Shown here piece by piece: positions 1,352-35,189 of a DNA stretch of 41,294 nt. The stretch covers positions 16,643 through 57,936 of the forward strand of contig CAYOWE010000001.1 in assembly GCA_964407595.1 (NCBI GenBank). Reading direction: 5' to 3'. How positions within the stretch are numbered: the first letter of the stretch is position 1; each line of letters starts with the position of its first letter. The notes under the pieces were generated by a model. It was not told where the DNA came from. It worked only from the letters and a program-made list of their open reading frames with translations, and ran no database searches. A program made the position numbers and the translations under genes. This stretch comes from an uncultured Candidatus Saccharibacteria bacterium. GTDB lineage: Bacteria > Patescibacteriota > Minisyncoccia > Portnoybacterales > UBA2143.

Positions 1352-2635
1352 TTAAAATCCTTCGTAATCCCTCATGGTTAACTGGCTGCCAACTTGACGC
1401 ATCATTTCCAAAACCACTGAAACAATAATCAGCAGAGCCGTGCCGCCAATAGCAAAGCCGAAGGCAGTTATGCCAGTGGCCCCTTGAACAATGGAAGGCA
1501 AAACAGCGATGGTCCCCAAGAAAATAGCTCCGCAAAGCAAAACTCGGTTAAGAATAAAATAAAGAAAATCAGAAGTTGGTCGGCCTGGCCGAATACCGGG
1601 AATAAAACCACCCATTTTTTGTAAATTATTAGCTACATTCTTCGGGTCAAAAGTAACCGCTGTGTAAAAATAAGTAAAGAGAACAACTAAAGCAAAATAA
1701 GCCGCCCCGTAAAACCAGGCGTTCTGGAAAAGACGGCCTACTATTTGAGCCATATTGGCTAACCAGCCAATCTGGGAAGTGCCTAAAAAATTAGCCACCA
1801 TGCCCGGAAAAAGCATAATCGATAAAGCAAAAATAATTGGGATAACCCCGGCTGGATTAATATTCAAAGGCAAATAAGTAGAGACGCCGCCGTAGATACG
1901 ATGACCGCGGACTCGTTTAGCATAAGAAACTGGGATATTGCGTCGTCCTTCAGTAATAATAACTACCCCGCTAGTGATAACTAAAGCCAAAGCCAAAAAA
2001 GCAAGATAAGAAGGAATTTTAGAAGGGTCATAAGTCACGGCCATTTCTCTAATTGAAAGAGGCACCCGCGAAACAATTCCGGCAAAAATTAATAAGGAAA
2101 CCCCATTGCCAATACCTTTTTCAGAAATTAGCTCACCCAGCCACATTAAAAATAAAGCGCCGGCCATAATCACTGAAATAGAAGTGAACCATTGCATTGG
2201 CGAAAGCGAACCAATGATATTCTGCCGACTCAACAGAGTCAACATAGCATAGGACTGTAATCCGGCCAAAGGCACAGTCAACAGACGGCTATATTGATTA
2301 AACTTCTGCCGACCTCGCTCGCCTTCTTCCTTGTAAAGGGCTTCTAATTGGGGAAAAATCATAGTTAAAAGTTGCATAATAATCGTGGCCGTAATAAACG
2401 GTCCCAAACCCAACATGACAATTGATAAATTACTCATGGCCCCGCCGGTAAAAATATTTAAAAGACCAAATAATTGGTTATTGGCAAAAAAATGTTTTAA
2501 TTGCTCCGTATCAATACCAGGCACCGGAATATTAGCCGCCACCCGGAAAACAACCAAAATCATCAAAACAAAAAATATCTTCTTGCGCAGATCTTTAATT
2601 TTGAAGATTTGGATAATCTTATTTAACCATTTCAT
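1352..2635 (-). CDS. secY: Preprotein translocase subunit SecY
   Basis: The 427-aa polytopic membrane ORF follows rplO, which is the typical SecY position, and has the expected length. Confidence 0.95.
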   Translation of the reverse strand: MKWLNKIIQIFKIKDLRKKIFFVLMILVVFRVAANIPVPGIDTEQLKHFFANNQLFGLLNIFTGGAMSNLSIVMLGLGPFITATIIMQLLTMIFPQLEALYKEEGERGRQKFNQYSRLLTVPLAGLQSYAMLTLLSRQNIIGSLSPMQWFTSISVIMAGALFLMWLGELISEKGIGNGVSLLIFAGIVSRVPLSIREMAVTYDPSKIPSYLAFLALALVITSGVVIITEGRRNIPVSYAKRVRGHRIYGGVSTYLPLNINPAGVIPIIFALSIMLFPGMVANFLGTSQIGWLANMAQIVGRLFQNAWFYGAAYFALVVLFTYFYTAVTFDPKNVANNLQKMGGFIPGIRPGRPTSDFLYFILNRVLLCGAIFLGTIAVLPSIVQGATGITAFGFAIGGTALLIIVSVVLEMMRQVGSQLTMRDYEGF

Positions 2636-2693
2636 AATTTTAAATTAAAATTTATAAAAATCATTGAGCAGATAATTTTAAAAAGCATCAGGA

Positions 2694-2738
2694 GGCAAAA
2701 TTGTTTGGTTCCCCGCAGTACTGCGGGGAAATTTTGCC
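2694..2738 (-). promoter_or_regulatory. Nested hairpin in the rplO|secY spacer
   Basis: The arms ggcaaaatt / aattttgcc enclose tccccgcagtactgcgggga (2710-2729). Confidence 0.7.
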
Positions 2739-2788
2739 GGATACTGAGCAAATTTTTCCGCTGGAGAAAAATTTGTGTCTTTTAAAAA

Positions 2789-3262
2789 TTACTTGCCCAG
2801 TGATTTTTTAATTTTTTCCTGAACGCTTTTTGATAACTTAACACCTTTAAATTCTAATTTCTTTTTCATTTCACCTTCCCCTAAAATCTTTACTTGGGGA
2901 ATTCTGCCTCCTATCTTATCAATTAAACCCTTTTTCAACAAGCTTTGTTGAGAAACAATTTCTCCTGCTTTAAATTTTTTTTCGATATCTCTTAAATTAA
3001 GAACAAATGCCTTAACTCGGAATCTGGCCGATTTACTGCCTCGTCTTATTTTAACTTTGCCAACACTGCCTCTTTGCTTGGGGAATCGTTTGGATAAGGG
3101 AGTGTCGCCACCAGCAAAACCCTGTCGCGGTTTGCGACCAGCCCGTGATTTTTGTCCTTTAAGACCGCGACCAGAATAAGTCCCTTGTTTGCCGCCGCGA
3201 CCAACGCGTTTGCGAGATTTCTTTTTGTAGACAAGTTTTAGTTGATGTAATTGCATAGTCAA
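2789..3262 (-). CDS. rplO: 50S ribosomal protein L15
   Basis: The 157-aa ORF has the RVGRGGKQGTYSGRGLKGQKSRAG motif and sits after rpsE. Confidence 0.95.
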   Translation of the reverse strand: MTMQLHQLKLVYKKKSRKRVGRGGKQGTYSGRGLKGQKSRAGRKPRQGFAGGDTPLSKRFPKQRGSVGKVKIRRGSKSARFRVKAFVLNLRDIEKKFKAGEIVSQQSLLKKGLIDKIGGRIPQVKILGEGEMKKKLEFKGVKLSKSVQEKIKKSLGK

Positions 3263-3303
3263 ATTTCTAATAAATCCTACCTTAGATTGATAAAAATTAG
3301 AAA

Positions 3304-3765
3304 TTAAGATTTAGGAATTCTTAAACTTTTTAATGCTTTAATCGTTGCCTGAGCATTGTTAAGTTTATTACCGGTCCGACCAATTATCTTAGCTGAAATA
3401 TTTCCAATACCAGCTAAGTTACAAATTACCCGCACCGCTCCCCCGGCCACAATTCCTCGGCCAGGACGGCCTGGTTTTAATAAAACTTTGGCGCTGCTAT
3501 ACTTGGCCTCTACTTGATGGGGAATAGTCCCCTTTAATAAAGGTATCTTGATTAAATGTTTTTTTGCCTTGGCCGTCGCCTTTTCCACCGCTAAACTAAC
3601 ATCCTGGCCCTTAGCTACCCCCAAACCCACCTCACCCTTCTGATTACCAATGACCATGACGACCCGAAATCTAAAGCGCCGGCCGCCAGCCACTACCCGC
3701 ACTACCCGGGCCACATCAAGTAATTTTTGTTCGTATTCAGTTTTCTCTAGTTGTTGGTTAAACAT
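3304..3765 (-). CDS. rpsE: 30S ribosomal protein S5
   Basis: The 153-aa ORF has S5 dsRBD-like and C-terminal motifs (VVRVVAGGRRFRF, GRGIVAGG) and is in operon order. Confidence 0.95.
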   Translation of the reverse strand: MFNQQLEKTEYEQKLLDVARVVRVVAGGRRFRFRVVMVIGNQKGEVGLGVAKGQDVSLAVEKATAKAKKHLIKIPLLKGTIPHQVEAKYSSAKVLLKPGRPGRGIVAGGAVRVICNLAGIGNISAKIIGRTGNKLNNAQATIKALKSLRIPKS

Positions 3766-3804
3766 AGTAAATTTTTAGAAGTGACGCTCTCAAAAAATTA
3801 GTCA

Positions 3805-4155
3805 TTAAAACTTAAGTCCCTCTTCTCTGGCTCCTTCAGCCATTGCTTTGACTCGACCATGATATTTATAGCCGCCTCGGTCAAAAACAACCTTTTTAAT
3901 TTTTTTCTCCAGGGCTTTCTTAGCTACTAGCCGGCCAACTTCCTTAGCCAACTGCATTTTAGTTAATCCTTTCTTATTTTTAATCTTGAGGTCGTCAAAA
4001 CTAACCAAGGTTTCTCTTTTATTATCATCAACTAACTGAGCAGAGATATGCTGATTGCTTCGAAAAACAGAAAAACGAGGGCATTCTTTAGTCCCCTTTA
4101 CTTTTGCTCTCACTCGCCTATGTCGTCGATAAAGTTTGGCTTGTTTTAATTGCAT
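3805..4155 (-). CDS. rplR: 50S ribosomal protein L18
   Basis: The 116-aa ORF contains [12 protein letters not shown]...[14 protein letters not shown] and is in operon order. Confidence 0.95.
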
Positions 4156-4160
4156 AAAAT

Positions 4161-4730
4161 TTATTCAGTGGTAGCGGCCTTCTTTCCTGCCTTTCTTCTA
4201 ATAACTTCCCCGAGATAGTGAATCCCTTTGCCTTTATAGGGCTCGGGTTTGCGATAAGCCCTAATTTTAGCGGCTATTTGACCGACCATTTGTTTATCTA
4301 TGCCAGAAATCGTAATGACATTTTTATCTACTTTGAACTCAATTCCGGCTGGCGCGACCACCTCAATAGGATGAGAAAATCCTAAATTTAAAATCAATTT
4401 ATTGTCCTGAAGAGAAGCCCGATAACCAACTCCCTCAATCTCTAATTTTTTTTCGAATCCTTCAGTTACTCCTTTGACCATATTAAAAATTAAAGCTCTC
4501 GATAATCCCCATAAAGCTGAACTATTTTTTGATTTTTCTTGAGGAATAACTTGCAATTCTTTGCCTGGGGCAGCTTCCTTATCTGGTGAATCCCTTAAAA
4601 TCAACTTAATTTGAGGAGGAATAGATTGACTTAATTCCCCTTGGGGACCCTTTACTTTAATCTCCTGCTGATTAATTTTTATTTCTACGTTTTCTGGAAT
4701 GATAATTAATTGTTTACCGATTTTTGACAT
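4161..4730 (-). CDS. rplF: 50S ribosomal protein L6
   Basis: The 189-aa ORF begins [12 protein letters not shown] and contains PEPYKGKGI. It is in operon order. Confidence 0.95.
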
Positions 4731-4745
4731 AAATTTGACATAAAT

Positions 4746-5135
4746 TTACCAAATTTCACATAAAATTTCGCCGCCTAATCCTTTTTTCTTAGCTTCCTTG
4801 TTTGTCATTAACCCCTGAGAAGTAGAAATAATTGCTAAACCATATCCTTGCCTAACTGACTTGACCTGGCTCTTTTTGAGATAGATTCTCTGACCGGGTT
4901 TACTGATTCTCTTTAGCTCTTTGATGACTGGCTGACCTTCTTCGTATTTTAATTTAATTTCTATAATCTTTTTTATTTTTCTTCCCCGAGTAGTTATTGC
5001 CTCAATTAATCCTTCCTTTTCTAAAACCTTAGCTAAATTGAATTTTATTTTAGAAAAAGGAACATTAACTGTCTGATGAGAGACAGCTTGAGCATTTTTT
5101 ATTCTAATTAACATATCAGAGATTGGATCTACCAT
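4746..5135 (-). CDS. rpsH: 30S ribosomal protein S8
   Basis: The 129-aa ORF contains [13 protein letters not shown] and is in operon order. Confidence 0.95.
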
Positions 5136-5314
5136 GATGATTTTTTGACGCCAGGGATTTCTCCTTTCCTGGCTAATTCTCTAAAACATATACGACACAA
5201 ACCAAATTTTCGCGAATAAGCTCTTTTGCGGCCACAGCGAAAACAACGCCGAACAAGACGGGTAGAAAATTTTGGTTTTTTTTGAGCTCTGGCAATAACT
5301 GATTTTTTAGCCAT
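5129..5314 (-). CDS. rpsN: 30S ribosomal protein S14, zinc-binding type Z
   Basis: The 61-aa ORF has CFRCG...CRIC and overlaps rpsH and rplE by a few nt. Confidence 0.95.
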
Positions 5315-5849
5315 GTTTGATGGGAAATCCCAATAACTTAAATAATTCTACTCCCTGTTGATGATTCTTGGCCGTAGTGACCACGACCATTTCTAACCCA
5401 AAAATATTTTTAGTACTTTCCGCAGAAATTTCTGGAAAAATAATTTGTTCTTTAAGGCCAATATTTAAATTACCGGATTGGTCAATGTTCTTTTCAGGCA
5501 AACCATAGAAATCGCGACTGCGCGGTAAAACAATATGAACTAATCTATCTAAGAAATCATACATCCGTTGGCCACGCAAAGTAATCATTAAACCAACAAT
5601 CATCCCTTTTCTTGTCTTAAAAGCCGCTTCGGCTTTTTTAGCTGGACAAGGATTTGCTTTCTGGCCAGTAATCAAAGCTAAATCATGAGCCATTTCCTGA
5701 CGTATTTTCTCGTCTTTAGTATTCGGATTAAATCCAGTATTAACTACTACCTTAATAATTTTTGGCACCGCCAAATTATTACGATAGCCAAATCGTTCTT
5801 TCATCTTCGGGATAACTTCTTTTGTATATTTTTCTTTTAATGATAACAT
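5307..5849 (-). CDS. rplE: 50S ribosomal protein L5
   Basis: The 180-aa ORF is in operon order and has L5-like motifs. Confidence 0.95.
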
Positions 5850-5861
5850 AACTATCCAAAA

Positions 5862-6167
5862 TTATATTTCTTGATTACACTTCTTACAAATCCGATACTT
5901 CCCTTTTTCAGTCAATCGATAACCAAGGCGGGTTGGCTGACCGCATTTAGGACAAACTAATTTAACATTAGAAACATCGATTGGTTTTGGCACTTCTATA
6001 ATTTGACCTTTTTCTTTTTCTTGTCGAGGACGGCGATGTTTCTTAACAATATTAGCTCCCTCTACTATTACTTTATCCTGACGAGGAAAAGCTTCCAGGA
6101 CTTTAGCTTTTTTGCCTTTATCTTTGCCACTAATGATTAAAACTGTATCTCCTTTTTTTATTTTCAT
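5862..6167 (-). CDS. rplX: 50S ribosomal protein L24 (KOW domain) with C-terminal CxxC...CxxC
   Basis: The 101-aa ORF contains KIKKGDTVLIISGKDKGK and is in operon order. Confidence 0.95.
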   Translation of the reverse strand: MKIKKGDTVLIISGKDKGKKAKVLEAFPRQDKVIVEGANIVKKHRRPRQEKEKGQIIEVPKPIDVSNVKLVCPKCGQPTRLGYRLTEKGKYRICKKCNQEI

Positions 6168-6168
6168 A

Positions 6169-6534
6169 TTACAATACCTCCGGAGCTAACGAAACTATCT
6201 TATCAAACCCCTTTTCTTTTAATTCTCGGGGCACTGGTCCGAAAATGCGACCACCCTTAGGATTAAAGCCGTCAATAATTACTGCCGCATTGTCATCAAA
6301 ACGGATATAGGAACCGTCAGCCCGACGATAGGTCTTTTTTTGGCGAACAATGACTGCCCGAACAATATCTTTTTTCTTAACTGTCTTTCTTGGTTCAGCT
6401 TCTTTAACTGAAGCAACCACAATATCGCCAATTTGGGCATAGCGGCGACGGCTGCCGCCTAAAACCTTAAAACACTGGATGATTTTAGCTCCTGTATTAT
6501 CAGCTACTTTTAATCTTGTTCCTGCTTGAATCAT
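6169..6534 (-). CDS. rplN: 50S ribosomal protein L14
   Basis: The 121-aa ORF begins [17 protein letters not shown]. Confidence 0.97.
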
Positions 6535-6591
6535 GACTATTTTATCGAAATTTATGAGTGTAACGAAATAAATTTCGTTACAAAATTGTCA

Positions 6592-6693
6592 CCCCGCCCT
6601 CTAAGCTGTAACATAATAACAATAATAAAGGTTATTGATAAGTATAATTTACTTTTAACCTTATGCCTTACGGTTAAAGCACAGAGGGCGGGG
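6592..6693 (-). repeat. GC-clamped long hairpin element, copy 1 (rpsQ|rplN spacer)
   Basis: The inverted repeat is ccccgccctct (6592-6602) / agagggcgggg (6683-6693) around an 80-nt AT-rich interior. The interior is homologous to copies 2 to 4. Confidence 0.85.
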
Positions 6694-6726
6694 TAAAGGT
6701 TTGGCAACTAAAAATCCTACGGATTT

Positions 6727-7011
6727 TTAGGCCAAGCCCTTCACTGTCCATTTTTTATCCTTACTTACGGGCCGACATTCTCTAATAATTACCCGGTCAC
6801 CTATTTTAAATTCATTCTTCTCGTCATGCGCTTTATACTTTTTATTAACCCGATATCTTTTTTTATACCGCGGATGTTTTTTTAACCGGGAAACAGAAAC
6901 AACAATGGTTTTATCCATCTTATCACTAATGACCACACCTTTAAGTAGTCGACCTTTTGATTTTCCGCCAGAGGCGGACACGCCTTTGGCAGGTTTTTCC
7001 TCTTTAGTCAT
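6727..7011 (-). CDS. rpsQ: 30S ribosomal protein S17 with short N-terminal extension
   Basis: The 94-aa ORF contains [16 protein letters not shown] and is in operon order. Confidence 0.95.
6961..6993 (-). repeat. Same 33-nt module (encodes [11 protein letters not shown]) in the S17 N-terminal extension
   Basis: The sequence is ttttccgccagaggcggacacgcctttggcagg. Confidence 0.8.
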
Positions 7012-7197: not shown

Positions 7198-7605
7198 TTA
7201 TCTACTAATGAACTTTGTTTTAATCGGTAATTTATGGCTGGCCCGGCGCATGGCTTCTTTAGCCATTTCTTCAGGCACACCATCCATTTCAAAGATAATC
7301 CGGCCTGGTTTTATGGGAACGACATAATGATCAACGCTGCCCTTGCCACCGCCCATAGGCACTTCCACTCCTTTTTTAGTCACTGGTTTATCTGGAAAAA
7401 TCCTAATCCAAATCTTGCCGCCTCGTTGAACATATCTGGTCATGGCCCGGCGGGCTGCTTCAATCTGTCGAGCAGTCAGCCAGCAACCATCCAAGGCCTT
7501 TAAACCATAGGAACCAAAAGCTAAATAGCTCCCCCGAGCTGTCTTTTTTCCTCTGGCCCGTCCTTTCTGCCATTTGCGATGTTTAACTTTTTTTGGAGAT
7601 AACAT
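7198..7605 (-). CDS. rplP: 50S ribosomal protein L16
   Basis: The 135-aa ORF begins [11 protein letters not shown] and contains RMGGGKG-like residues. Confidence 0.97.
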
Positions 7606-7672
7606 ACCAATTTTCTCAACGAGGCAAAGTCGCTTAAGGCGACCGCCCGCCGAGTTGTTAGAAAATTGAGTA

Positions 7673-7771
7673 CCCCGCCCTCTAAGCTATAACCTAGTAA
7701 TAATGAAGGTTATTAATAAGTATAATTTGCTTTTAGCCTTATACCTTGCAGTTAAAGCATAGAGGGCGGGG
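7673..7771 (-). repeat. GC-clamped long hairpin element, copy 2 (rpsC|rplP spacer)
   Basis: The inverted repeat lies at 7673-7683 / 7761-7771. The interior closely matches copy 1. Confidence 0.85.
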
Positions 7772-7827
7772 TTAAGGTTCTGTTACTAAAATTTATTCGC
7801 TATTACTCCAAATTTTAGACAGAATCC

Positions 7828-8478
7828 TTAAAAAACTTCTCCTTTATAAATCCAAACTTTTACGCCGATAGTGCCATAAGTAGTGTAAGCAGTCGCTTGA
7901 GCATAGTCAATATCAGAACGCAAGGTCTGTAAAGGAATTCTCCCCTTCTTTAGCCATTCTCTCCGGGCAATTTCTGCTCCGTTCAATCTTCCTTTAAGCA
8001 TAACTTTTATTCCCTGAACTTCCTTATTCTGCGTAACTTTACTCAAGGTCTGCTTCATTACTCGGCGATAAGGAAAACGTCTTTCTATCTGACTAACCAT
8101 ATCAGCCGCGACAATAGCTGCTTGCGAGCCAATTTGTTTGATTTCTTCGATTTCTAAACGAACTTCGAGATTAGCTGATTCAGGTTTGCATTTTTGAAGA
8201 ATCTTTTTTATTTCCTGTTTTAACTCTTCAGCACCACTGCCGCCTCGACCAATAACTAATCCGGGCCGAGCTGTTTGAATAATAATATTAATAGAATTAG
8301 CCGAGCGTTCTATTTTAATTGAATTAATTCCTGCTTTATCTACCTTTTTCACAATAAACTCCCGCAATTTAACATCTTGCTCTAAAAATTCCTTATACTT
8401 TCTCTTACTAAACCAGCAGGACTTCCAATCAGCCCCTAGGCCTATTCGAAAAGATAATGGATGAACTTTTTGTCCCAT
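7828..8478 (-). CDS. rpsC: 30S ribosomal protein S3
   Basis: The 216-aa ORF begins MGQKVHPLSFRIG and has a KH domain. Confidence 0.97.
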   Translation of the reverse strand: MGQKVHPLSFRIGLGADWKSCWFSKRKYKEFLEQDVKLREFIVKKVDKAGINSIKIERSANSINIIIQTARPGLVIGRGGSGAEELKQEIKKILQKCKPESANLEVRLEIEEIKQIGSQAAIVAADMVSQIERRFPYRRVMKQTLSKVTQNKEVQGIKVMLKGRLNGAEIARREWLKKGRIPLQTLRSDIDYAQATAYTTYGTIGVKVWIYKGEVF

Positions 8479-8485
8479 AATTGTT

Positions 8486-9106
8486 TTAGATACTTTTTCT
8501 CCTAAAATATTTTTTGATATTACCGAAAGTCTGACGGCTAAAAAACCTTTTCTTGGATTGAGAAGTAGTTGGATAAGGCCGGGGCGGCAAGACCGGTTTT
8601 GGTTTGGGTACCGGACCCTTTACTTCTTTTATTCTCTGAATCTCTTCTAATAATTCCGGTTCTTTTTTTTCTTCTTTGCCTTCAACAGTTTTAGCGGAGA
8701 AAGACTTGGCAACTAATGGCTTTTCCTCTTTGGCTGTTCTTGACTCAACTTCCTTAACTTCTTGAGAAACTGATGCTTCTTTTTCATTTAAAATTAAAGT
8801 AATATGACTGGTTCTTTTCATTATCGGCGTCGTCCGACCCATGGCTCGTGGTCGCCATCTTTTTAAAGTTGGCCCACTCTCAACAATAACATTACTGACG
8901 TAAAGATTCTCTTTGACTAAATTTGCTTTGTTTTTAGCATTAGCCACTGCCGAATTAAGCAGCTTTAAAACGGGCTTAGCTGCTTTCTTGGTCAAAAATT
9001 TTAATTGTCTTTCCGCTTCAATTACTGACAAACCCTTAATTAAATCAGTAACTAATCTGATTTTGCGAGATGAAATTCTTAAGTGACTTAATTTAGCCGT
9101 AATCAT
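8486..9106 (-). CDS. rplV: 50S ribosomal protein L22 with long charged/proline-rich C-terminal extension
   Basis: The 206-aa ORF has an L22 core in its first ~110 aa. It is in operon order. Confidence 0.93.
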   Translation of the reverse strand: MITAKLSHLRISSRKIRLVTDLIKGLSVIEAERQLKFLTKKAAKPVLKLLNSAVANAKNKANLVKENLYVSNVIVESGPTLKRWRPRAMGRTTPIMKRTSHITLILNEKEASVSQEVKEVESRTAKEEKPLVAKSFSAKTVEGKEEKKEPELLEEIQRIKEVKGPVPKPKPVLPPRPYPTTSQSKKRFFSRQTFGNIKKYFRRKSI

Positions 9107-10267: not shown

Positions 10268-10771
10268 TTATTTCGGCAATAACTCTATTTTTTCTCCTTT
10301 GGCTAAGGTAACAATCGCTTTTTTAAAACCCTTTTTTAACCCATGACGCCAACCTTCACTGCGACCCAAACGTCTTTTTTTGGGAGCTGAATGGATTAAA
10401 TGAACTTTTTCCACCTTAACGCCATAAAGTGTCTCAATAACCTTTTTAATCTCAACCTTATTGGCCTTGGGAAAGACCTTAAAAACGTATTTATTTTGGT
10501 TAGCTAAAAAATTAGCTTTTTCGGTAATATGCGGCTCTTTAATAATCCGATAGGCCTCTGGTACTTTTTTGCCAACGACTTTTTGGAGCTTTTCTTTCTT
10601 GGATTTCTCATTCTGGTCAGCCTTCTTATTTTCTTTTTTTTCGGGTTTCTTTATTATCTGGACTTTTTCTTTCTCACTAGAAGCGGATCTGCCCACGTCA
10701 GTCCGCTCTTGGCGGATTTGGCTGACTTTGGCAGATTTTATTTTCTTTTTAAATCTATCTAATAAAGCCAT
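10268..10771 (-). CDS. rplW: 50S ribosomal protein L23 with ~70-aa K/E-rich N-terminal extension
   Basis: The 167-aa ORF has an L23 core in its C-terminal ~95 aa (ITEKANFL...VFKV). It is in operon order. Confidence 0.92.
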   Translation of the reverse strand: MALLDRFKKKIKSAKVSQIRQERTDVGRSASSEKEKVQIIKKPEKKENKKADQNEKSKKEKLQKVVGKKVPEAYRIIKEPHITEKANFLANQNKYVFKVFPKANKVEIKKVIETLYGVKVEKVHLIHSAPKKRRLGRSEGWRHGLKKGFKKAIVTLAKGEKIELLPK

Positions 10772-12859: not shown

Positions 12860-14059
12860 TTACTTAGATATTTTAGTCACTACTCCAGCGCCTACTGTCT
12901 TACCGCCTTCTCGAAGGGCAAATCGCTGTTTTATTTCTAAGGCAACTGGTGACATTAGCTTAATCTTTAAATTGACCGTGTCGCCCGGCATAACCATCTC
13001 GGTCCCTTCAGGTAAAGTTACCTCGCCAGTTACATCAGTTGTCCTGATATAAAATTGAGGCTTATATCCACTAAAGAAAGGGGTATGGCGACCACCTTCC
13101 TCTTTAGATAGGATATAGACTTCTCCCTCAAACTCCTGATGAGGGGTAACACTGCCCGGCTTAGCTAAAACTTGACCTCTTTCAAGATTCTCTCTTTTGA
13201 CTCCTCGCAATAAAATACCAGCATTATCGCCGGCTCTTCCTTCATCAAGCGATTTATTAAACATTTCAATACCGGTAATGACTGTTTTTTGAGTATCGTG
13301 CAAGCCAATTACTTCCACTTCTTCATTGAGTTTGACTATTCCTCTTTCAATTCGACCAGTAGCCACCGTGCCTCGCCCTTCAATAGAAAAAATATCCTCA
13401 ATAGGCATTAAGAATGGCTTATCCACTTCACGAGTCGGTTCGGGAATATTTTCATCAATTGACTTCATTAATTCCCTAATCGGCCCACATTTTGGACAAT
13501 CTTCTTTACCGCAGCCGCATTCCAAGGCCTGAAGAGCCGAACCTCGAATAATCGGAATTTTATCTCCTTCAAATTCATACTTACTCAAAAGCTCTCTAAT
13601 TTCCTGTTCAACTAAATCAACCAACTCTGAATCATCGGTCTGGTCTGTTTTATTCAAAAAGACAACTAAGGCAGGCAAACCAACCTGACGAGCTAAAAGA
13701 ATGTGTTCTCGGGTTTGCGGCATTGGTCCATCAGGCGCTGAAACGACTAAAATAGCTCCGTCCATTTGAGCCGCTCCGGTAATCATATTTTTAATGTAAT
13801 CAGCGTGACCGGGACAATCAATGTGAGCATAATGCCGTTTCTCTGTCTCGTATTCAACGTGAGCTACGGCAATGGTCAAGCCACGCGCTTTTTCTTCCGG
13901 AGCATTGTCAATATCATTAACCCCTTTATCTTGGGACTTAAAACCAGCCGCTTTTAAACATTTTAAAATAGCCGCGGTTAAAGTGGTTTTACCATGGTCA
14001 ACGTGACCAATGGTTCCGATATTAAGGTGTGGCTTTGTTCTTTCAAATTTCTCAGCCAT
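12860..14059 (-). CDS. tuf: Elongation factor Tu
   Basis: The sequence is EF-Tu-like from [27 protein letters not shown] (ATG at 14057-14059). The 18 extra N-terminal residues in the ORF track come from an upstream repeat. Confidence 0.97.
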
Positions 14060-14162
14060 ATTAACAGCAAATAATGAACAATGAACAGCGAACAATAAAA
14101 AGTCGCTATTCAAAATTCTCTATTCACATATATTAAATTTAGTTTTTAACAACTTTATATAA

Positions 14163-14191
14163 AGTTTACAAAACATCCTCCAAATAGTCAA
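14163..14191 (-). promoter_or_regulatory. Internal promoter for tuf
   Basis: The minus strand reads TTGACT (14186-14191), 17 nt, then TAAACT (14163-14168). Confidence 0.6.
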
Positions 14192-14227
14192 TACCTCAAC
14201 GAACAATATTGTTCATTGTTCATTGAT

Positions 14228-14491
14228 TTAAAACGGTAAATCTTCTACTTTGACTTCCTGATTATCAGTAACTTCTTGATTATCCGGTTCAACCCCTTCG
14301 GTCTCTTCTTTTTCTTCGGCTTTCCATTCATCAATATCCCGATTAACTTTCTCTATCTCTGAAGATGACCGACCAGAACCTGCCTTTTCATAATCTTCCA
14401 GCCTCATAACTAAATAGGTCGGCCGGTTCTTTTCTACTATAATACACTTACCGCCTTCTTTTTGCAATATTTTTTTAATTCTTTCCCACAT
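14228..14491 (-). CDS. Small acidic hypothetical protein (Phd/YefM-like N-terminal pattern, acidic tail ending DLPF)
   Basis: The 87-aa ORF lies between fusA and tuf. Residues GKCIIVEKNRPTYLVMRLEDYEKA resemble the antitoxin-fold beta-strand plus EEY pattern. This is inferred from the pattern only. Confidence 0.55.
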   Translation of the reverse strand: MWERIKKILQKEGGKCIIVEKNRPTYLVMRLEDYEKAGSGRSSSEIEKVNRDIDEWKAEEKEETEGVEPDNQEVTDNQEVKVEDLPF

Positions 14492-14554
14492 GCTAATTTT
14501 CTCAACGAGACAAGCAAGCTTGCTTGCGACATCGAGTTGTTAGAAAATCGAGCA

Positions 14555-14653
14555 CCCAGCCCTCTAAGCTGTAATTTAAATAATAACAGATTACTATAAA
14601 TATGTAAATTACTTTTTGGCTCTATGTTTTAATCTAAGACATAGAGGGCTGGG
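14555..14653 (-). repeat. GC-clamped long hairpin element, copy 3 (fusA|small ORF spacer)
   Basis: The inverted repeat is cccagccctct (14555-14565) / agagggctggg (14643-14653). The flanks are identical to those of copy 2. Confidence 0.8.
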
Positions 14654-14683
14654 TAATGCTTCAGTCACCAAAAATCCGGTGTC

Positions 14684-16819
14684 TTACGACTTGGATTTTT
14701 GGTCTGAACCAATTATCTCTTCAAGCACATTCTTGGGCACTTCAGCATAATAGTCAAATTCCATGGTGAAAGTGGCTCGGCCTTGAGTCATTGACCTTAA
14801 TTGAGTAGCATAGCCAAACATACTAGCCAAAGGCACCTGGGCATCAATTACTTTAACCCGACTGGCCTCTTCTCCTCTGTCTTCCATTTTGGCAATCTTA
14901 CCTCGTTTAGCACTAATGTCACCGATAACATCTCCCATAAACTGCTCCGGAGTAACCACCTCTAATTTCATAACTGGCTCTAATAAAATCAAATCAGCCT
15001 GTTTAACTGCTCCCTGCAAAGCGATTGAACCAGCAATTTTAAAAGCGGCTTCCGAAGAATCTACATCATGATAAGAACCATCGTAAAGGGTGACTTTCAG
15101 GTCAACTAAAGGATAACCGGCTAAGACACCTTTATCCATCGCTTCTTTAACTCCCTTTCCCACAGCCGGAATAAATTCCTGGGGAATGACACCTCCTTTA
15201 ATCGTATTAATAAATTCAAAGCCCTGACCTCGTTCTTGCGGTTCAACTTTCAACCAAACATGACCATATTGGCCATGACCGCCAGTCTGACGAATGTATT
15301 TTCCTTCGGCTTCCGCCATCTCTTTAATTGTTTCCTTGTAAGCTACTTGGGGCTGACCAATATTGGCCCCTACTTTAAATTCCCTCAGCATTCGGTCAAC
15401 AATAACTTCCAGATGTAATTCGCCCATGCCGGAAATAATCGTTTGACCGGTCTCGGTATCACCTTTAATCTGGAAAGTTGGATCTTCATCGGCTAGCCGT
15501 TTTAGGGCCAGACCCATTTTTTCCTGGTCAGCTTTTGTCTTTGGCTCAATAGCAATAGAAATAACTGGTACGGGAAAAGTAATTTTTTCTAAAAGTATCG
15601 GCTGATTAGGATCAGCTAAGGTATCGCCAGTAGTCGTTTCCTTAAGGCCAATAGCTGCTCCGATGTCTCCGGCATAAAATTCTTTTACTTCTTCGCGTTG
15701 AGCCGCATGCATTCTCAAAAGGCGACCGATTCTTTCTTGTTTACCCGTGTTAGAGTTTAGCACATAAGAACCACTCGTCAAGATACCAGAATAAATTCTT
15801 AAATAGGCTAATTGACCAACAAAAGGGTCGGTAGCTATTTTAAAAACCAAAGCCGCCAAAGACGCCTCATCTTTGCTCTCTCTGGTCAATTTCTTTGTTT
15901 CATCTTTAAAGTCAAAACCCTCAACTGACGGCAAGTCAACTGGAGCAGGCAAGTAATCAATAATACCATCTAATAAAAGTTGGATTCCCTTATTTTTTAA
16001 AGCCGAACCGCAAAAAACCGGCACTAATTTATAATTAATAGTTGCTTGACGCAAAACCCGCTTCAAATCTTCTTCTTTTATTTCTTGGCCATCTAAATAT
16101 TTTTCAGTCAATTGGTCATCTTGTTCAACAATTTTTTCCAGCATCTTATTTTGATAATCCTTACTCTCCTCTTTCATTTCTTGAGGAATTTCCTCTTCAA
16201 CAACTTGCTCACCGTGATCGCCAATAAACTTATAGGCCTTCATCTTAACTAAATCAATTATTCCCTGATGTTTTTCTTCTAAGCCAATGGGGATTTGCAG
16301 AACGACCGCTTGAGGAGTTAATCGCTGCCAAATTGAATTTAAACTCTTTTTAAAATCAGCCCCGGTTCTGTCTAATTTGTTAATAAAACAAAGACGCGGC
16401 ACTTTAAATTTATCCGCCTGACGCCAGACCGTTTCCGACTGTGGTTCCACACCGGCTACTCCATCAAAAACAACTACGGCTCCGTCAAGCACTCTTAAGG
16501 AACGCTGCACTTCAACCGTAAAATCAATATGACCGGGCGTATCAATGATGTTAATAAGGTACTCTCCTGGTCCGCTTTCCTTAGATAAATATCCTCGAGC
16601 TGTCCAAAAACAAGTGGTCGCCGCCGCCGTAATAGTAATGCCTCTCTCTTTTTCTTGTTCCATCCAGTCCATGATTGCCTCACCTTCATGAACCTCGCCA
16701 ATTTTATGAGAAATACCAGTATAAAAAAGCACCCGTTCCGTAACGGTGGTCTTACCTGCATCAATATGAGCAATGATGCCGATGTCTCTTGTTTTTTTAA
16801 TTGGATATTGTCTGGGCAT
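14684..16819 (-). CDS. fusA: Elongation factor G
   Basis: The 711-aa ORF contains [15 protein letters not shown] and DTPGHIDF. Confidence 0.97.
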
Positions 16820-26349: not shown

Positions 26350-27674
26350 ACAATGGATAAATTTCTATAACTTGCCGTAATCCCCAAGACCAACCAAAAC
26401 ATTATCTGTCCCTGCTGTAAGGTCCAAAAAAAATGGTCAAAGAGAGCAATAAACAAAAAAGAAAAAATAACAAATACTAAACAGTAATTAAACATAGGCC
26501 TTCGACTCGGGCTCTGCCCTCGTTCAGGCCATAACGCTTTAAGAATAAAAATTAAAAAGAAAACCAATCCGATTAGACCTGTTTCGCTGGCAATAAGCAG
26601 ATAAATATTATGAACTGGCTGATGAAGCCAAGCAGATAAAAGGTGAAGTATCTCTCTAATTTCCCAGACAAAATTACCCAAACCTATGCCCAGCCAAGGA
26701 TGTTCCTTGATTATAGAAAAAGCTGTTTGATTGTAGAAAGTGCGCAAACTGACTGATTGCTCAGTCAAAGAAATTGACCAGCGAGAAGAAATTTCCGGCC
26801 AGGCTAGAACAGTGAACAGACAACAGAAAACAATGAACAATAAAAAAACTGATACAATTCTTTTGAATAATTCTTTATCCGGCATCTGGATAACCCGCCA
26901 AAAAAGAAAAATAAAATAAATCAAACTAGCCAATAGAAAAGTAAAAATAATCAGGCGGGAAAAAGTCAGCCCGAGAGCAAACAACAATAAACAAAAAACA
27001 GTCAACAAAAAACAGTTTTTAATAAAGGAATGTTTTTTATTCAGCCAAAGAAAATAAAAACAAAAAATACTTAAGATAAAAAAAGCCGCTAAAAGATTAG
27101 GATGAGGCAAGCTGCCGTAAGGCCGAATCATCTTTATCCCTTCAATAACAATTTTAGCCACGCCGGCTGTTTCTGGACTTAAGGGACTCTCAAGTAAATA
27201 TCTTAAACCCAGGCTTTTTTGACTGGTATATTGACCAAAAGCGATAAAAGATTGAACCAAACCACTGGCCATTAAAATTTGGGCTACTCGCTCAAAATTG
27301 AATAATTGCCTGAAATTATATTTTAAATAAAAAAATAAACCGGCTAATTCCAGTAGTTTAAACCAATGATAAAAACCAAGCTGAATATTCTTAGCTTGGA
27401 CTAATGAAATTAAACTGATAATTAAAAAAATGACCAGCCAAAAATTGGGGCTTTTCATTATCTCTTGAAATCTTCCAATGGCTAATCCTTTTTTAAAAAA
27501 TCTATCTTTTCTTTTTCGCCAAAACCAAAACAGAAAAATCGATAAAATCAACAAGTCAGTCAAATAAAGATAAACACTGGACCATTCACTAAAATCACCT
27601 CCCCATTGATAAAGTATTTTCCGGGTCTGAAAAGGCAAGCAAAAAATCAACAGATAAAAGAAAAGTTTTTCCAT
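26346..27674 (-). CDS. O-antigen ligase/polymerase-like polytopic membrane protein
   Basis: The ORF is hydrophobic and contains HNIYLLIASETGLIGL. I chose the start at MEKLFFYLL (27672-27674) to avoid overlapping the Mur ligase gene. Confidence 0.65.
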   Translation of the reverse strand: MEKLFFYLLIFCLPFQTRKILYQWGGDFSEWSSVYLYLTDLLILSIFLFWFWRKRKDRFFKKGLAIGRFQEIMKSPNFWLVIFLIISLISLVQAKNIQLGFYHWFKLLELAGLFFYLKYNFRQLFNFERVAQILMASGLVQSFIAFGQYTSQKSLGLRYLLESPLSPETAGVAKIVIEGIKMIRPYGSLPHPNLLAAFFILSIFCFYFLWLNKKHSFIKNCFLLTVFCLLLFALGLTFSRLIIFTFLLASLIYFIFLFWRVIQMPDKELFKRIVSVFLLFIVFCCLFTVLAWPEISSRWSISLTEQSVSLRTFYNQTAFSIIKEHPWLGIGLGNFVWEIREILHLLSAWLHQPVHNIYLLIASETGLIGLVFFLIFILKALWPERGQSPSRRPMFNYCLVFVIFSFLFIALFDHFFWTLQQGQIMFWLVLGITASYRNLSIV

Positions 27675-34176: not shown

Positions 34177-34551
34177 TCAAAGATTTTCCTCTTTACTGCA
34201 TTTCATGCATAATCTTGCCTCAGGGACAACTTCCAGGCGTTTTGGTTCAATCTTTTTTTGACACTTCTCGCATTTACCATAATCACCTTTTTTAATTTTA
34301 ATTAATGCATCTTCAATATCCTCAAGCCGCAATTCTAAAGTATGTTCAACTGGTAATAAATTTTCGTATCCTTCTATTTCTTCAGCGTTTTCATCTTTAC
34401 GGGAACGATTTAAACCAAAGAAAGGAAAACGGGTCAGCCAATTCCCTTTTAATAGAGGGTCTTTTTTAGCAAAAAATCCGAGATCCTTGATTAATCTCTT
34501 TTTTTCTGCTTCTAATTTCTTTTGGAGATTTTTTTGTAAATCCTTATCCAT
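34177..34551 (-). CDS. DksA/TraR-family C4 zinc-finger protein
   Basis: The 124-aa ORF has a coiled-coil N-terminus and CEKCQKKI...CMKCS. Confidence 0.7.
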   Translation of the reverse strand: MDKDLQKNLQKKLEAEKKRLIKDLGFFAKKDPLLKGNWLTRFPFFGLNRSRKDENAEEIEGYENLLPVEHTLELRLEDIEDALIKIKKGDYGKCEKCQKKIEPKRLEVVPEARLCMKCSKEENL

Positions 34552-34621
34552 GCCAATGTTGTCTAAATTTATAAGCTGAGCTCAATGCGAAGCGTAATGA
34601 ATTTAGCCACAACATTGAGCA

Positions 34622-34719
34622 CCCCGCCCTCTATGCTTTAACTGTAAGGCATAGGGTTAAAAGTAATTTATATTATCAATAACCTTAATAATTGCTAGGT
34701 TACAACTTAGAGGGCGGGG
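34622..34719 (+). repeat. GC-clamped long hairpin element, copy 4 (leader of the dksA-like gene), core inverted
   Basis: The inverted repeat lies at 34622-34632 / 34709-34719. The interior matches the reverse complement of copies 1 and 2. Confidence 0.85.
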
Positions 34720-34764
34720 TAAGGGTTTTCTAACTCCGCATTACTGCGTAGAGAAAGCCCTTTA

Positions 34765-34793
34765 ATTTTAGCACAAAAATATGATGTCAACAA
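34765..34793 (-). promoter_or_regulatory. Extended -10 promoter for the dksA-like gene and its long leader
   Basis: The minus strand reads TTGTTG, 17 nt, then TGcTAAAAT (-10 at 34765-34770). A perfect TTGACA also lies at 34785-34790, but only 14 nt away. Confidence 0.45.
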
Positions 34794-34827
34794 GGTTTTG
34801 TGAAAATAAAAAAAGGCCACTTTAATA

Positions 34828-34856
34828 TTGACTCTTTTAGAAAATTATGATATTAT
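34828..34856 (+). promoter_or_regulatory. Strong plus-strand promoter with no downstream ORF
   Basis: It reads TTGACT (34828-34833), a 17-nt spacer ending in TGa, then TATTAT (34851-34856). Confidence 0.6.
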
Positions 34857-34862
34857 AGAGGG

Positions 34863-35136
34863 ACCTTGTGACCAAAATTAATTACTTCAAGGGCCCAAGG
34901 TCCCTCTTTGTTTTTCTACAATCAAGGCGTTATCACGCTATTTTTTTATAATAATTGCCTCCTGCGCAATAAACAGCCATTTACAGAAAAACATTTTTTA
35001 TCTTCTGCTAATCACCGGTCCTTTTTAGGACCTTGATATAACTGTTAAAAATTAAAGAACTAATAAATTCTATTTGCAATCAGCAAAAGATGTCCCCTGA
35101 TAAGTTTCAGTAAATTTGCGGGGACATTTTTATTTT
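34863..35136 (+). ncRNA. Candidate non-coding transcript bounded by a promoter and a terminator
   Basis: The predicted TSS is ~34863. One hairpin with a U-run lies at 34857-34916 and a second lies at 35090-35136. No ATG-initiated ORF is longer than 3 codons. I recognise no known RNA family. Confidence 0.3.
35090..35136 (+). terminator. Rho-independent terminator (also usable on the minus strand after 35190..35882)
   Basis: The stem pairs atgtcccc with ggggacat (35090-35097 / 35120-35127). It is followed by tttttatttt and preceded by aaaag. Confidence 0.6.
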
Positions 35137-35189
35137 ATCAATCAGGGACCATCTTTGTCAAGTCCTGTTTATCCACAGCTTATAAACAA

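Follow-up and report, generated by a model that had tools for sequence, protein, structure and literature searches.

A three-hairpin insertion between rpsQ and rplN, probably mobile, and its relatives at other gene junctions of candidate-phyla-radiation bacteria

Introduction

Short palindromic repeats that settle in transcribed DNA are known from several bacteria, and we compare them here with a structured spacer between the ribosomal-protein genes rpsQ (S17) and rplN (L14) of an uncultured bacterium labelled Candidatus Saccharibacteria (contig CAYOWE010000001.1). The whole stretch of DNA analysed is 41,294 nucleotides long and is called the window below; the spacer lies at 6535-6726 and is 192 nt long. 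We consider it probable, from comparison of sequences, that this spacer is one copy of a small, non-autonomous, palindromic family of mobile insertions, similar in kind to miniature inverted-repeat transposable elements (MITEs), repetitive extragenic palindromes (REPs) and the intervening sequences (IVSs) of ribosomal RNA, and carried mostly by bacteria of the candidate phyla radiation (CPR).

Among the closest described systems, the ERIC (or IRU) repeats and the Rickettsia palindromic elements (RPEs) are imperfect palindromes of about 100-150 bp that lie in transcribed regions and are tolerated in essential loci. The Correia elements of Neisseria (CREE or NEMIS) duplicate a TA target, have 26-bp inverted repeats with an IHF site and may bear promoters at their ends. 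They are non-autonomous, about 100-150 bp long, bounded by inverted repeats and variable in presence between strains, they are transcribed together with neighbouring genes, and RNase III binds or cuts their long hairpin (PMC2649163). A REP is a palindrome of 20-40 nt, one end of which bears GTAG or CGTC (PMC3733652); two REPs in inverted order make up a REPIN (PMC3116915). REPs, REPINs and the mosaic BIMEs are non-autonomous extragenic palindromes in transcribed operon spacers, oriented with transcription and built as mosaics of hairpin modules (PMC3116915, PMC3337134). In the rRNA genes of CPR bacteria, Tsurumaki et al. found many short (<200 bp) insertions that are not introns and hold no open reading frame (ORF), for which IVSs of the RNase III type were suggested and which stayed uncharacterised (PMC11270868).

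The unit that fills our spacer, read in gene sense, consists of three abutting hairpins, namely a first hairpin (HP1), a core closed by a GC-rich clamp and a third hairpin (HP3), and all four copies in the window are built in this way. It works like the Correia elements, REP/BIME/REPIN repeats, ERICs and 23S IVSs, but it lacks the duplication, the tag or the doublet by which such systems are defined. Like the Correia elements it is non-autonomous, similar in size, bounded by inverted repeats, variable in presence and predicted to be cotranscribed with its neighbours and to fold into a long hairpin, and it differs from them in having no duplication, a clamp of 13+3 bp, an unconserved interior, two extra flank hairpins and an exact span from stop to start codon. 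With REPs, REPINs and BIMEs it has in common the place in transcribed spacers, the orientation with transcription and the mosaic of hairpin modules; the clamp ACCCCGCCCTCTATGC carries no GTAG or CGTC tag, is no palindrome by itself and forms no REP doublet; no RAYT (Y1 HUH) gene was seen in the 41-kb window or in the 8-kb loci of other copies. ERICs are found in both orientations relative to transcription, while the flanks of our element have a fixed orientation, and RPEs lie in frame within coding sequences and are translated, while no conserved frame runs through our core. A 23S IVS is a hairpin insert that replaces the loop of an rRNA helix, occurs sporadically between lineages and is thought to be mobile. 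One copy of our family is such an insert, but the family also occupies protein-operon junctions and tRNA-adjacent spacers, and we know of no IVS described as the same repeat family in those places.

The literature that we searched holds no description of the element sequence or of MITE-like repeats in CPR operons, and the nearest work is the survey of CPR rRNA insertions (PMC11270868). To our knowledge the combination is novel: a three-hairpin unit that brings its own stop codon and ends at a start codon, an unconserved interior of fixed length, and occurrence in mRNA, tRNA-adjacent and rRNA contexts.

Results

The spacer is empty in close relatives

Looking up the exact L14 protein led to contigs from other samples, three of which (L001, L003 and L005) match the window. 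Two others (L002 and L004) encode the identical L14, but in these rpsQ and rplN overlap (ATGA; …TTATGATT…) and the spacer is empty. The rpsC/rplP junction of L002 reads TAA-ATT-ATG, a spacer of 3 nt compared with 222 nt in the window. L002 and the window differ by 140 evenly spread single-nucleotide polymorphisms in 4.4 kb, or about 3.2%, and the comparison is thus one of related lineages rather than of clones. A loss that exactly restores an overlapping stop and start codon is implausible, so the filled state is the derived one. The aligned junctions show the spacer to be an insertion that is polymorphic between relatives.

The insertion at rpsQ/rplN (copy 1) is 205 nt long, reaches into the last codons of rpsQ and replaces 9 nt (TAATAAATT) of the overlapping junction. 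It gives S17 a new stop codon and a C-terminus of the same length, ...KKWTVKGLA before the stop in place of ...KKWRVNNKL in the empty allele. At rpsC/rplP (copy 2), 3 target nt are replaced.

An earlier reading of the window from its sequence only had set aside a transposon-like (MITE) origin. The two empty sites in a relative with an identical L14 do not support this position, and neither does the presence of the same architecture at different junctions of one operon in nine lineages, near tRNA genes and within a 23S rRNA gene. The element is short, non-coding and multicopy (four copies in 41 kb and at least about 90 in other genomes), with terminal inverted repeats of 13+3 bp, and it shows presence/absence polymorphism at orthologous sites, both in L002 and L004 and, for L002, at rpsC/rplP too, all of which is typical of a MITE.

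Anatomy of the unit and the four copies in the window

The copies and the genes next to them, the latter identified by Pfam, are as follows.

6535-6739, minus strand: copy 1, whole inserted segment, 205 nt, delimited by comparison with the empty alleles of L002 and L004
6695-6741, minus strand: copy 1 HP1, AAGGgcTTGGCCTAAAAATCC-gta-GGATTTTTAGtTGCCAAaCCTTt, with the rpsQ stop codon (6727-6729) inside; from sequence, fold and the other copies
6591-6694, minus strand: copy 1 core, a clamp of 16 positions (13 bp, a U·U/T·T mismatch, 3 bp) around an AT-rich interior
6535-6590, minus strand: copy 1 HP3, GACaATTTTgTaaCGAAATTTAT...ATAAATTTCGAtAAAATaGTC, its last pair touching the rplN ATG (6532-6534); from a fold including the ATG
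7606-7830, minus strand: copy 2 (rpsC/rplP), with HP1 7773-7830, core 7672-7772 and HP3 7606-7671
14492-14702, minus strand: copy 3 (fusA/orf87), with HP1 about 14655-14702, core 14554-14654 and HP3 14492-14553
34552-34764, minus strand: copy 4 (5' leader of a DksA/TraR-type gene), TAAAGGGC..., with HP1 34721-34764, core 34621-34720 and HP3 34552-34620
6169-6534, minus strand: L14 (rplN)
6727-7011, minus strand: S17 (rpsQ)
7198-7605, minus strand: L16 (rplP)
7828-8478, minus strand: S3 (rpsC)
12860-14059, minus strand: EF-Tu (tuf)
14684-16819, minus strand: EF-G (fusA)
34177-34551, minus strand: DksA/TraR-type zinc-finger protein

The genes flanking copy 1 all lie on the minus strand, and the gene calls agree with the 192-nt structured spacer that the sequence-only reading had described. 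Its remark that other ribosomal spacers measure 0-40 nt is only roughly right, although spacers of 114, 128, 153 and 168 nt also occur in the window. We recovered its hairpin ctaaaaatcc-tac-ggatttttag at 6708-6730, which covers the rpsQ stop codon, and its GC-rich inverted repeat, whose true extent is 13 bp, a T·T mismatch and 3 bp more (6591-6694). Its three further copies are at the places it gave (7672-7772, 14554-14654 and 34621-34720). The two alternative hairpins that it drew before rplN both exist, but it is the longer HP3 helix (GACaATTTTgT...AtAAAATaGTC) that recurs across the family; this helix includes the pairing of cgaaattta with taaatttcg and ends at the ATG.

The clamp has the form ACCCCGCCCTCT-(G/A)TGC ... 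GCTT-AGAGGGCGGGGT, in which 13 bp, a T·T mismatch and a further 3 bp make up 16 positions. The window contains CCCNGCCCTCT eight times, in four pairs, compared with 1.6 ± 1.3 times in shuffled sequence, and none of 100 shuffles reached eight. Between the arms of the clamp the window cores have AT-rich interiors of 72-76 nt. The full units fold much better than shuffled sequence (z = -6.3, -8.9, -5.0 and -5.8 for copies 1 to 4). HP1 starts at or in the upstream stop codon (TAAGGATTCTGTC...GAACCTTA in copy 2, TTAAAGGGCTTTCTC...GAAAACCCTT in copy 4), with TAA(A)GG as the typical beginning across the family. HP3 starts with G/ACTCAAT in the window and ends with ATTGGT, TTAGC, TTGGC or ATAGTC directly before the ATG; across the family it typically starts with GCTCA and ends with GGC or CGC, again directly before the ATG. 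The four copies of the window have their flank modules in shuffled combinations, and the base of HP3 of copy 1 recurs in another organism (L132:205-290).

The HP1 of copy 2 contains the rpsC stop codon (TAA, 7828-7830) and its HP3 ends at the rplP ATG (7603-7605), so that the spacer is 222 nt long. In copy 3, HP1 covers the fusA stop codon (14684-14686), HP3 ends at the ATG of an ORF of 87 amino acids (orf87), and the clamp carries a compensatory variant, CCCAGCC/GGCTGGG. The HP3 of copy 4 ends at the ATG at 34549-34551.

Several smaller observations concern these hairpins and the surroundings of copy 4. In many loci (L012, L026, L088, L066, L110, and 34585-34600 of the window) the tips of HP1 or HP3 have GAGCGAAGCGA in their 5' half and the complementary TCGCTTCGCTC in their 3' half, and these tips contain the mini-hairpin motif GCGAAGC/GCTTCGC. 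Just upstream of copy 4 we noticed by eye a promoter-like TTGACA...TGcTAAAAT (about 34765-34790) with a spacer of only 14 nt, which our promoter scan does not list because it required 16-18 nt between the hexamers. The gap upstream of the DksA-like gene is 638 nt long; its remainder (34765-35189) holds several hairpins, no ORF of 50 or more amino acids and no Rfam hit, and the same gap has a strong promoter-like match, TTGACA-18-TAAAAT with TG, at 35161-35132 on the minus strand. Several independent assemblies (contigs L123, L124 and L127) end inside copy 4 (34552-34720), which shows that the repeat fragments metagenome assemblies beside marker genes.

The family outside the window

One genome per species was scanned with the pattern ACCCNGCCCTCT-N65-95-AGAGGGCNGGGT, which gave at least 112 stretches; the family counts, alignments and loci below rest on the matches listed in that scan. 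About 25 of these are chance matches in GC-rich genomes. At least about 87 combine an AT-rich interior with a length confined to 96-104 nt, and these come nearly all from metagenome-assembled genomes of Patescibacteria, with a few in bins labelled Omnitrophota or Planctomycetia. The carriers among the matches include Taga-, Staskawicz-, Campbell-, Harrison-, Jorgensen-, Nealson- and Brennerbacteria, Paceibacterota and bins labelled Saccharibacteria. The best matches of its proteins place the window, too, in the Patescibacteria.

Conservation outside the clamp is limited to ATGC(T)...GCTT. The interior of the core cannot be aligned between subfamilies and is mostly unstructured, with a median z of -0.26. 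A structured interior was rejected as a family feature since only 15 of 90 interiors have z below -2, the window copies being among those few. A covariance model, which the sequence-only reading had proposed as a check, was built from 63 cores and run over 650 kb of loci. It found further copies in other genomes, with the same HP1 and HP3 flanks around other, still complementary clamps (ACCCCCTCTTTTAAC..., ACCGAGCACATAAATTT..., ACCCCGCCCTTTTGG... and ACCCCGCCCCAATTCC...). The idea of a universal clamp sequence was thus dismissed as an artefact of the search pattern, at least five other clamps having turned up with the same flanks. Since the flanks are kept while the clamps differ, it is the architecture and not one sequence that defines the family.

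Miniature forms, with some 25-40 nt between the repeats, and nested forms were found as well, and they suggest insertion into hairpin loops or internal deletion. The individual cases are a core inside a core (L023, 255-362), a mini-core with compensatory CCGTCT/AGACGG arms inside an HP3 loop (L132, 222-272) and clamps with short loops of 25-40 nt (L132, 9021-9064; L033, 991-1039 and 5692-5739). In minimal copies the flanks measure only about 10-15 nt. Two sites that we first took for an HP3 without a core (L046:2183 and L056:2211) both carry a core with a variant clamp. A subfamily-specific pattern run against metagenomes returned only two loci, which are one element in two samples, and added little on orientation. 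Counting 'TTGGCATG' genome-wide as a signature of the 3' end was abandoned as too loose, with many matches lying within genes.

The element has no Rfam family, as the sequence-only reading had supposed: with release 15 at gathering thresholds the window gives only five tRNAs, and at E-values up to 10 there are only weak, generic matches to long hairpins of the miRNA-precursor type, far below threshold. Phage and plasmid collections and 2.9 million viral contigs gave no match to the element.

Position between stop and start codons

The geometry was analysed in 41 distinct co-directional gene pairs. The unit fills the entire gap from stop to start, with a median gap of 180 nt (range 113-286). 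The last pair of HP3 directly adjoins the ATG in 22 of 35 cases and lies within 2 nt of it in 30, and in 21 of 27 cases the stop codon contains the first pair of HP1. Of the GCTC-type flanks, 29 are found 3' of the core and 2 are found 5' of it, so that the flanks point with transcription. Most genes of the window have no Shine-Dalgarno sequence. Positions -1 to -5 before the ATG are A/T-rich in ordinary window genes, compared with GGC, GGT, AGC or GTC behind an element, so that a G-rich ending marks the element. At L047 the unit begins just after a tRNA gene and still starts with cTAAAGAG. Because the 5' TAAAG(G/A)G is present here and behind the promoter-like site of copy 4, neither of which has a preceding ORF, the stop codon is part of the element in that subfamily.

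The flanking genes are housekeeping genes. Ribosomal proteins make up at least 11 of the 61 downstream and at least 10 of the 57 upstream genes, and the others include three nusG/rplK junctions, S6/SSB/S18 junctions, EF-Tu and RNA polymerase. Nine lineages have different junctions of the same S10/spc operon occupied.

Window: S3/L16, S17/L14, EF-G/orf87
L014: L14/L24, L18/S5
L025: S3/L16
L033: EF-Tu/S10, with mini copies at S10/L3 and S3/L16
L090: S17/L14
L070: L2/S19, S19/L22
L017: L2/S19, L4/L23
L056: three sites
L030/L096: S19/L22, with four variant-clamp copies at S3/L16, L14/L24, L5/S14 and L15/secY

Thus in L030, 5 of about 16 S10/spc junctions are occupied. Its variant-clamp units (ACCCCGCCCCAATTCC...GGAATTGGAGCGGGGT), which are GC-richer and have a structured interior, lie at these positions:

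L030, 1566-1887
L030, 3163-3379
L030, 4216-4446
L030, 7087-7344

Copies adjoin tRNA genes in L047, L040, L027 and L068. In a Jorgensenbacteria genome (L051) a unit of 221 nt, again HP1, core and HP3, lies within domain I of the 23S rRNA gene, where it replaces a hairpin loop of 2 nt at about positions 229-230 of the Rfam LSU model. This copy, and not copy 1, is therefore a hairpin in place of an rRNA helix loop as in a 23S IVS. The same 23S gene (2045-6016) also has a group I intron (2766-3067) and, in another loop of domain I (about 5714-5853), a separate AT-rich hairpin of 139 nt with a different GC clamp (CCGCCGCG/CGCCGCGG). Junctions that differ between lineages, together with the tRNA-adjacent and 23S copies, indicate the behaviour of a mobile insertion and not of a dedicated rplN regulator.

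Pairing, coding and orientation

The one clamp position that the search pattern had left free covaries, with 17 double changes in 63 sequences, and HP3 has compensatory changes at 5 of 17 pairs. Helices long selected as RNA normally show a strong excess of G·U. On the sense strand, G·T and A·C mismatches number 18 and 12 in HP1, 22 and 19 in HP3 and 39 and 52 in the core; at these small counts an excess of G·U over A·C, a signature specific to RNA, is absent from the stems. The RNA roles proposed in the sequence-only reading, namely RNase III processing, insulation and translational control, may nevertheless apply. Both strands fold equally well, which is suggestive of DNA-level palindromes or of young copies.

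Other candidate explanations of the core were rejected. Through the 3' arm a few copies encode ...LEGGV..., but none of the frames stays open systematically, and the median is 9-12 codons in every frame. A conserved promoter in the interior was dismissed, as conservation is confined to ATGC(T)...GCTT and promoter-like matches are about as frequent as chance predicts. An integron attC site has core sites RYYYAAC...GTTRRRY around an imperfect hairpin and lies between cassettes; here the ends read by eye are ACC...GGT, with CCTTT and GCTCA flanks, there is no GTTRRRY/RYYYAAC pair, and the neighbours are essential ribosomal genes rather than cassettes.

Compared with copies 1-3, copy 4 has its interior the other way round: this interior is 84% identical to that of copy 1 when flipped and 59% when not. 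The flanks of copy 4 (...CCCTT, then the core, then GCTCAAT...) keep the orientation of the other copies. Across the 41 co-directional cases the mismatch of the clamp reads U·U on the sense strand in 20 and A·A in 12, and for the family as a whole 32 of the matches listed have T·T there and 14 have A·A. Among 21 pairs of copies with related interiors only one is flipped. No orientation polymorphism was seen within assemblies, which show the majority orientation only; copy 4 is identical in at least seven independent samples and copies 1 and 3 in three further assemblies each. A recombination site at the DNA level, one of the roles proposed in the sequence-only reading, is thus partly supported in that the core exists in both orientations, while all of the at least seven samples show one orientation. 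The identical orientation across samples and the 20 unflipped pairs led us to reject a fast invertible switch. The core flip is a rare evolutionary event, as expected of occasional recombination or template switching between the repeat arms, and not a working switch.

Discussion

If the spacer is a mobile insertion, several of its features may explain how it is tolerated. The unit often supplies a stop codon and spans from the stop of one gene to the start of the next. Folding models suggest that the transcribed insert, in copies with both flank hairpins, would fold away, so that the stop and start codons come to lie next to each other at the feet of stacked helices. Such self-folding could make the insert tolerable in tightly coupled ribosomal-protein operons without Shine-Dalgarno sequences, beside tRNA genes and in an rRNA loop, and the closeness of stop and start may preserve coupling between termination and reinitiation. 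Another possibility is that RNase III cuts the hairpins off, in the manner known from rRNA intervening sequences. The clamp would be the terminal inverted repeat used by the mobilising machinery. Replacement without duplication between TAA and ATG would fit microhomology-guided copying or a route based on single-stranded DNA or RNA. Nested, miniature and variant-clamp copies, and assemblies that break inside the element, are signs of mobility and decay.

A number of points weigh against the view that the spacer is a mobile insertion. There is no target-site duplication around the core or the whole unit, nor at either of the two empty/filled pairs, and the window holds no transposase, as the sequence-only reading had also noted, and no reverse transcriptase or recombinase. 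None of these enzymes was noticed among the genes flanking the copies either. The insertions took the place of 3 and 9 target bases and duplicated none, contrary to what one expects of classical cut-and-paste transposition. A search of 650 kb of loci for lone or distant half-sites around a gene, as a longer autonomous version with the same ends would have, found none. The empty/filled comparison consists of only two pairs, and its empty allele comes from a lineage diverged by 3%. Conservation of the clamp is partly by construction, the exact clamp pattern having been used to collect the family. The proposed roles in the transcript, namely folding out, coupling and RNase III cleavage, are ones we infer from the sequences, and a function for the host could equally lie behind the strict orientation with transcription and the enrichment in translation operons.

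Such a host function is the main rival, although on the whole we think it rather unlikely. Under it the unit would be a useful RNA device (an RNase III site, an insulator or stabiliser of mRNA, or a platform for start-codon presentation or reinitiation) that spreads by benefiting highly expressed genes. This would account for the 29 to 2 bias in orientation, for a unit that begins at a stop codon and ends exactly at an ATG, for the enrichment in ribosomal-protein, nusG/rplK, S6-SSB-S18 and elongation-factor operons, for the reuse of S3/L16, S17/L14, S19/L22, L2/S19 and L14/L24 across lineages, for the compensatory changes in HP3 and for copies 3 and 4 being fixed and identical in all sampled populations. 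A precedent exists in the Correia elements, which are cotranscribed and which RNase III binds or cuts (PMC2649163). However, close relatives do without copies 1 and 2, the occupied junctions differ in every lineage, the core may lie in the transcript either way round (U·U 20, A·A 12), its interior is neither conserved nor structured (median z -0.26), the stems lack the G·U excess, and a translational role makes no sense for the rRNA and tRNA-adjacent copies. Somewhat more doubtful is a stepwise mosaic like the BIMEs of E. coli, in which the core is a small MITE of its own that inserts either way into hairpin modules or loops and HP1 and HP3 are separate repeats. The two core orientations between flanks of fixed orientation speak for it, as do the core or mini-core nested in a core (L023) and in an HP3 loop (L132:222-272), identical flank types with quite different clamps, the shuffled flank modules in the window and the minimal copies with short flanks. 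On the other hand, flanks and core are present or absent together at both polymorphic sites of the window, the two apparent core-less HP3 sites turned out to carry a core, and no clean flank-only site was found.

Spread through an RNA intermediate is a still weaker candidate, and we consider it quite improbable. A processed RNA (5'-UAAAGG...GGCAU-3') would be inserted into abundant transcripts, or reverse-transcribed, with microhomology at TAA and ATG. The targets are indeed the most abundant transcripts (rRNA, tRNA-adjacent, ribosomal-protein, elongation-factor, nusG and ssb operons), the orientation is strictly sense, the termini are constant across contexts (TAAAG after the tRNA gene of L047 and after the promoter-like site of copy 4), and the junctions were replaced with 2-3 shared nt instead of being duplicated. 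Yet no reverse transcriptase was seen, poly-A and other hallmarks of retro-elements are missing, the two core orientations need an extra step at the DNA level, and selection alone could give this spectrum of targets, with only two junction pairs to judge from. Hardly credible at all is an inverton, in which the 12-16 bp repeats are recombinase sites and flipping the interior of about 76 bp toggles the downstream gene. Inverted repeats do surround a segment found in both orientations, commonly so across the family; the interior of copy 4 is inverted between unchanged flanks, and that of copy 1 holds a promoter-like TTATCA-17-TATTAT on the sense strand. Against this, the assemblies do not have both orientations at any one locus, copies 1, 3 and 4 keeping the same orientation and sequence in independent samples, and a recombinase is not among the genes of the window. 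Only 1 of the 21 related pairs is flipped, the interior is unconserved, and the promoter-like matches number 4 compared with 3.0 ± 1.7 in shuffles. In addition, DNA stiffness makes 76 bp a very short distance for synapsis of two sites in duplex DNA.

A bolder version of the mobile-insertion reading, to which we give only a slim chance, is that of a 'stop-start cassette', an insert that carries its own stop, delivers the start and lets the ribosome reinitiate across three stacked hairpins, perhaps spreading via processed RNA into abundant transcripts. In ribosome shunting on the 35S leader of CaMV and in the coupling of termination and reinitiation, an ORF ends at the foot of a stable stem and the next start lies immediately beyond the other foot. 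The likeness is one of geometry and serves as an analogy only, as shunting is a mechanism of eukaryotic 40S subunits; by that analogy the cassette would be a bacterial counterpart of it.

The genomes of CPR bacteria are small and gene-dense with tight operons, yet inserts of 110-290 nt lie in the most conserved operon in biology. To bring its own stop codon, to end at a start codon and to fold itself out of the message may be the form in which a selfish element survives there. The family would link the unexplained short rRNA insertions of CPR bacteria to a repeat that colonises mRNAs and tRNA-adjacent spacers, and it offers a natural test case for the translation of downstream cistrons without Shine-Dalgarno sequences. 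There is also a practical side, as the repeats break metagenome assemblies in the ribosomal operons that supply markers for CPR phylogeny and can alter the annotated C-termini of ribosomal proteins.

Other features of the window

The 153-nt rplO/secY spacer (2636-2788) contains two unrelated hairpins, ttttctccagcggaaaaa and ttccccgcagtactgcgggga, which lie outside the element family. No L30 gene is present in the 47-nt gap between rpsE and rplO (2789-3765), as is typical of CPR bacteria. L22 (206 amino acids, 8486-9106) and L23 (167 amino acids, 10268-10771) are unusually long.

The ORF that follows copy 3, between fusA and tuf (14228-14491, minus strand), encodes a very acidic protein of 87 amino acids (MWERIKKILQKEGGKCIIVEKNRPTYLVMRLEDYEKAG...) with no Pfam match. 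The exact protein is encoded on at least 24 contigs from many samples, at the same position every time. In the spacer between this ORF and tuf (14060-14227), inverted AATGAACAATGAACA... / ...TGTTCATTGTTCATT repeats bracket an AT-rich stretch, and related AACA(A/G)TGAACA repeats (repeat family D3) recur near 26.8-27.0 kb, at 26808-26846 and 26976-27028.

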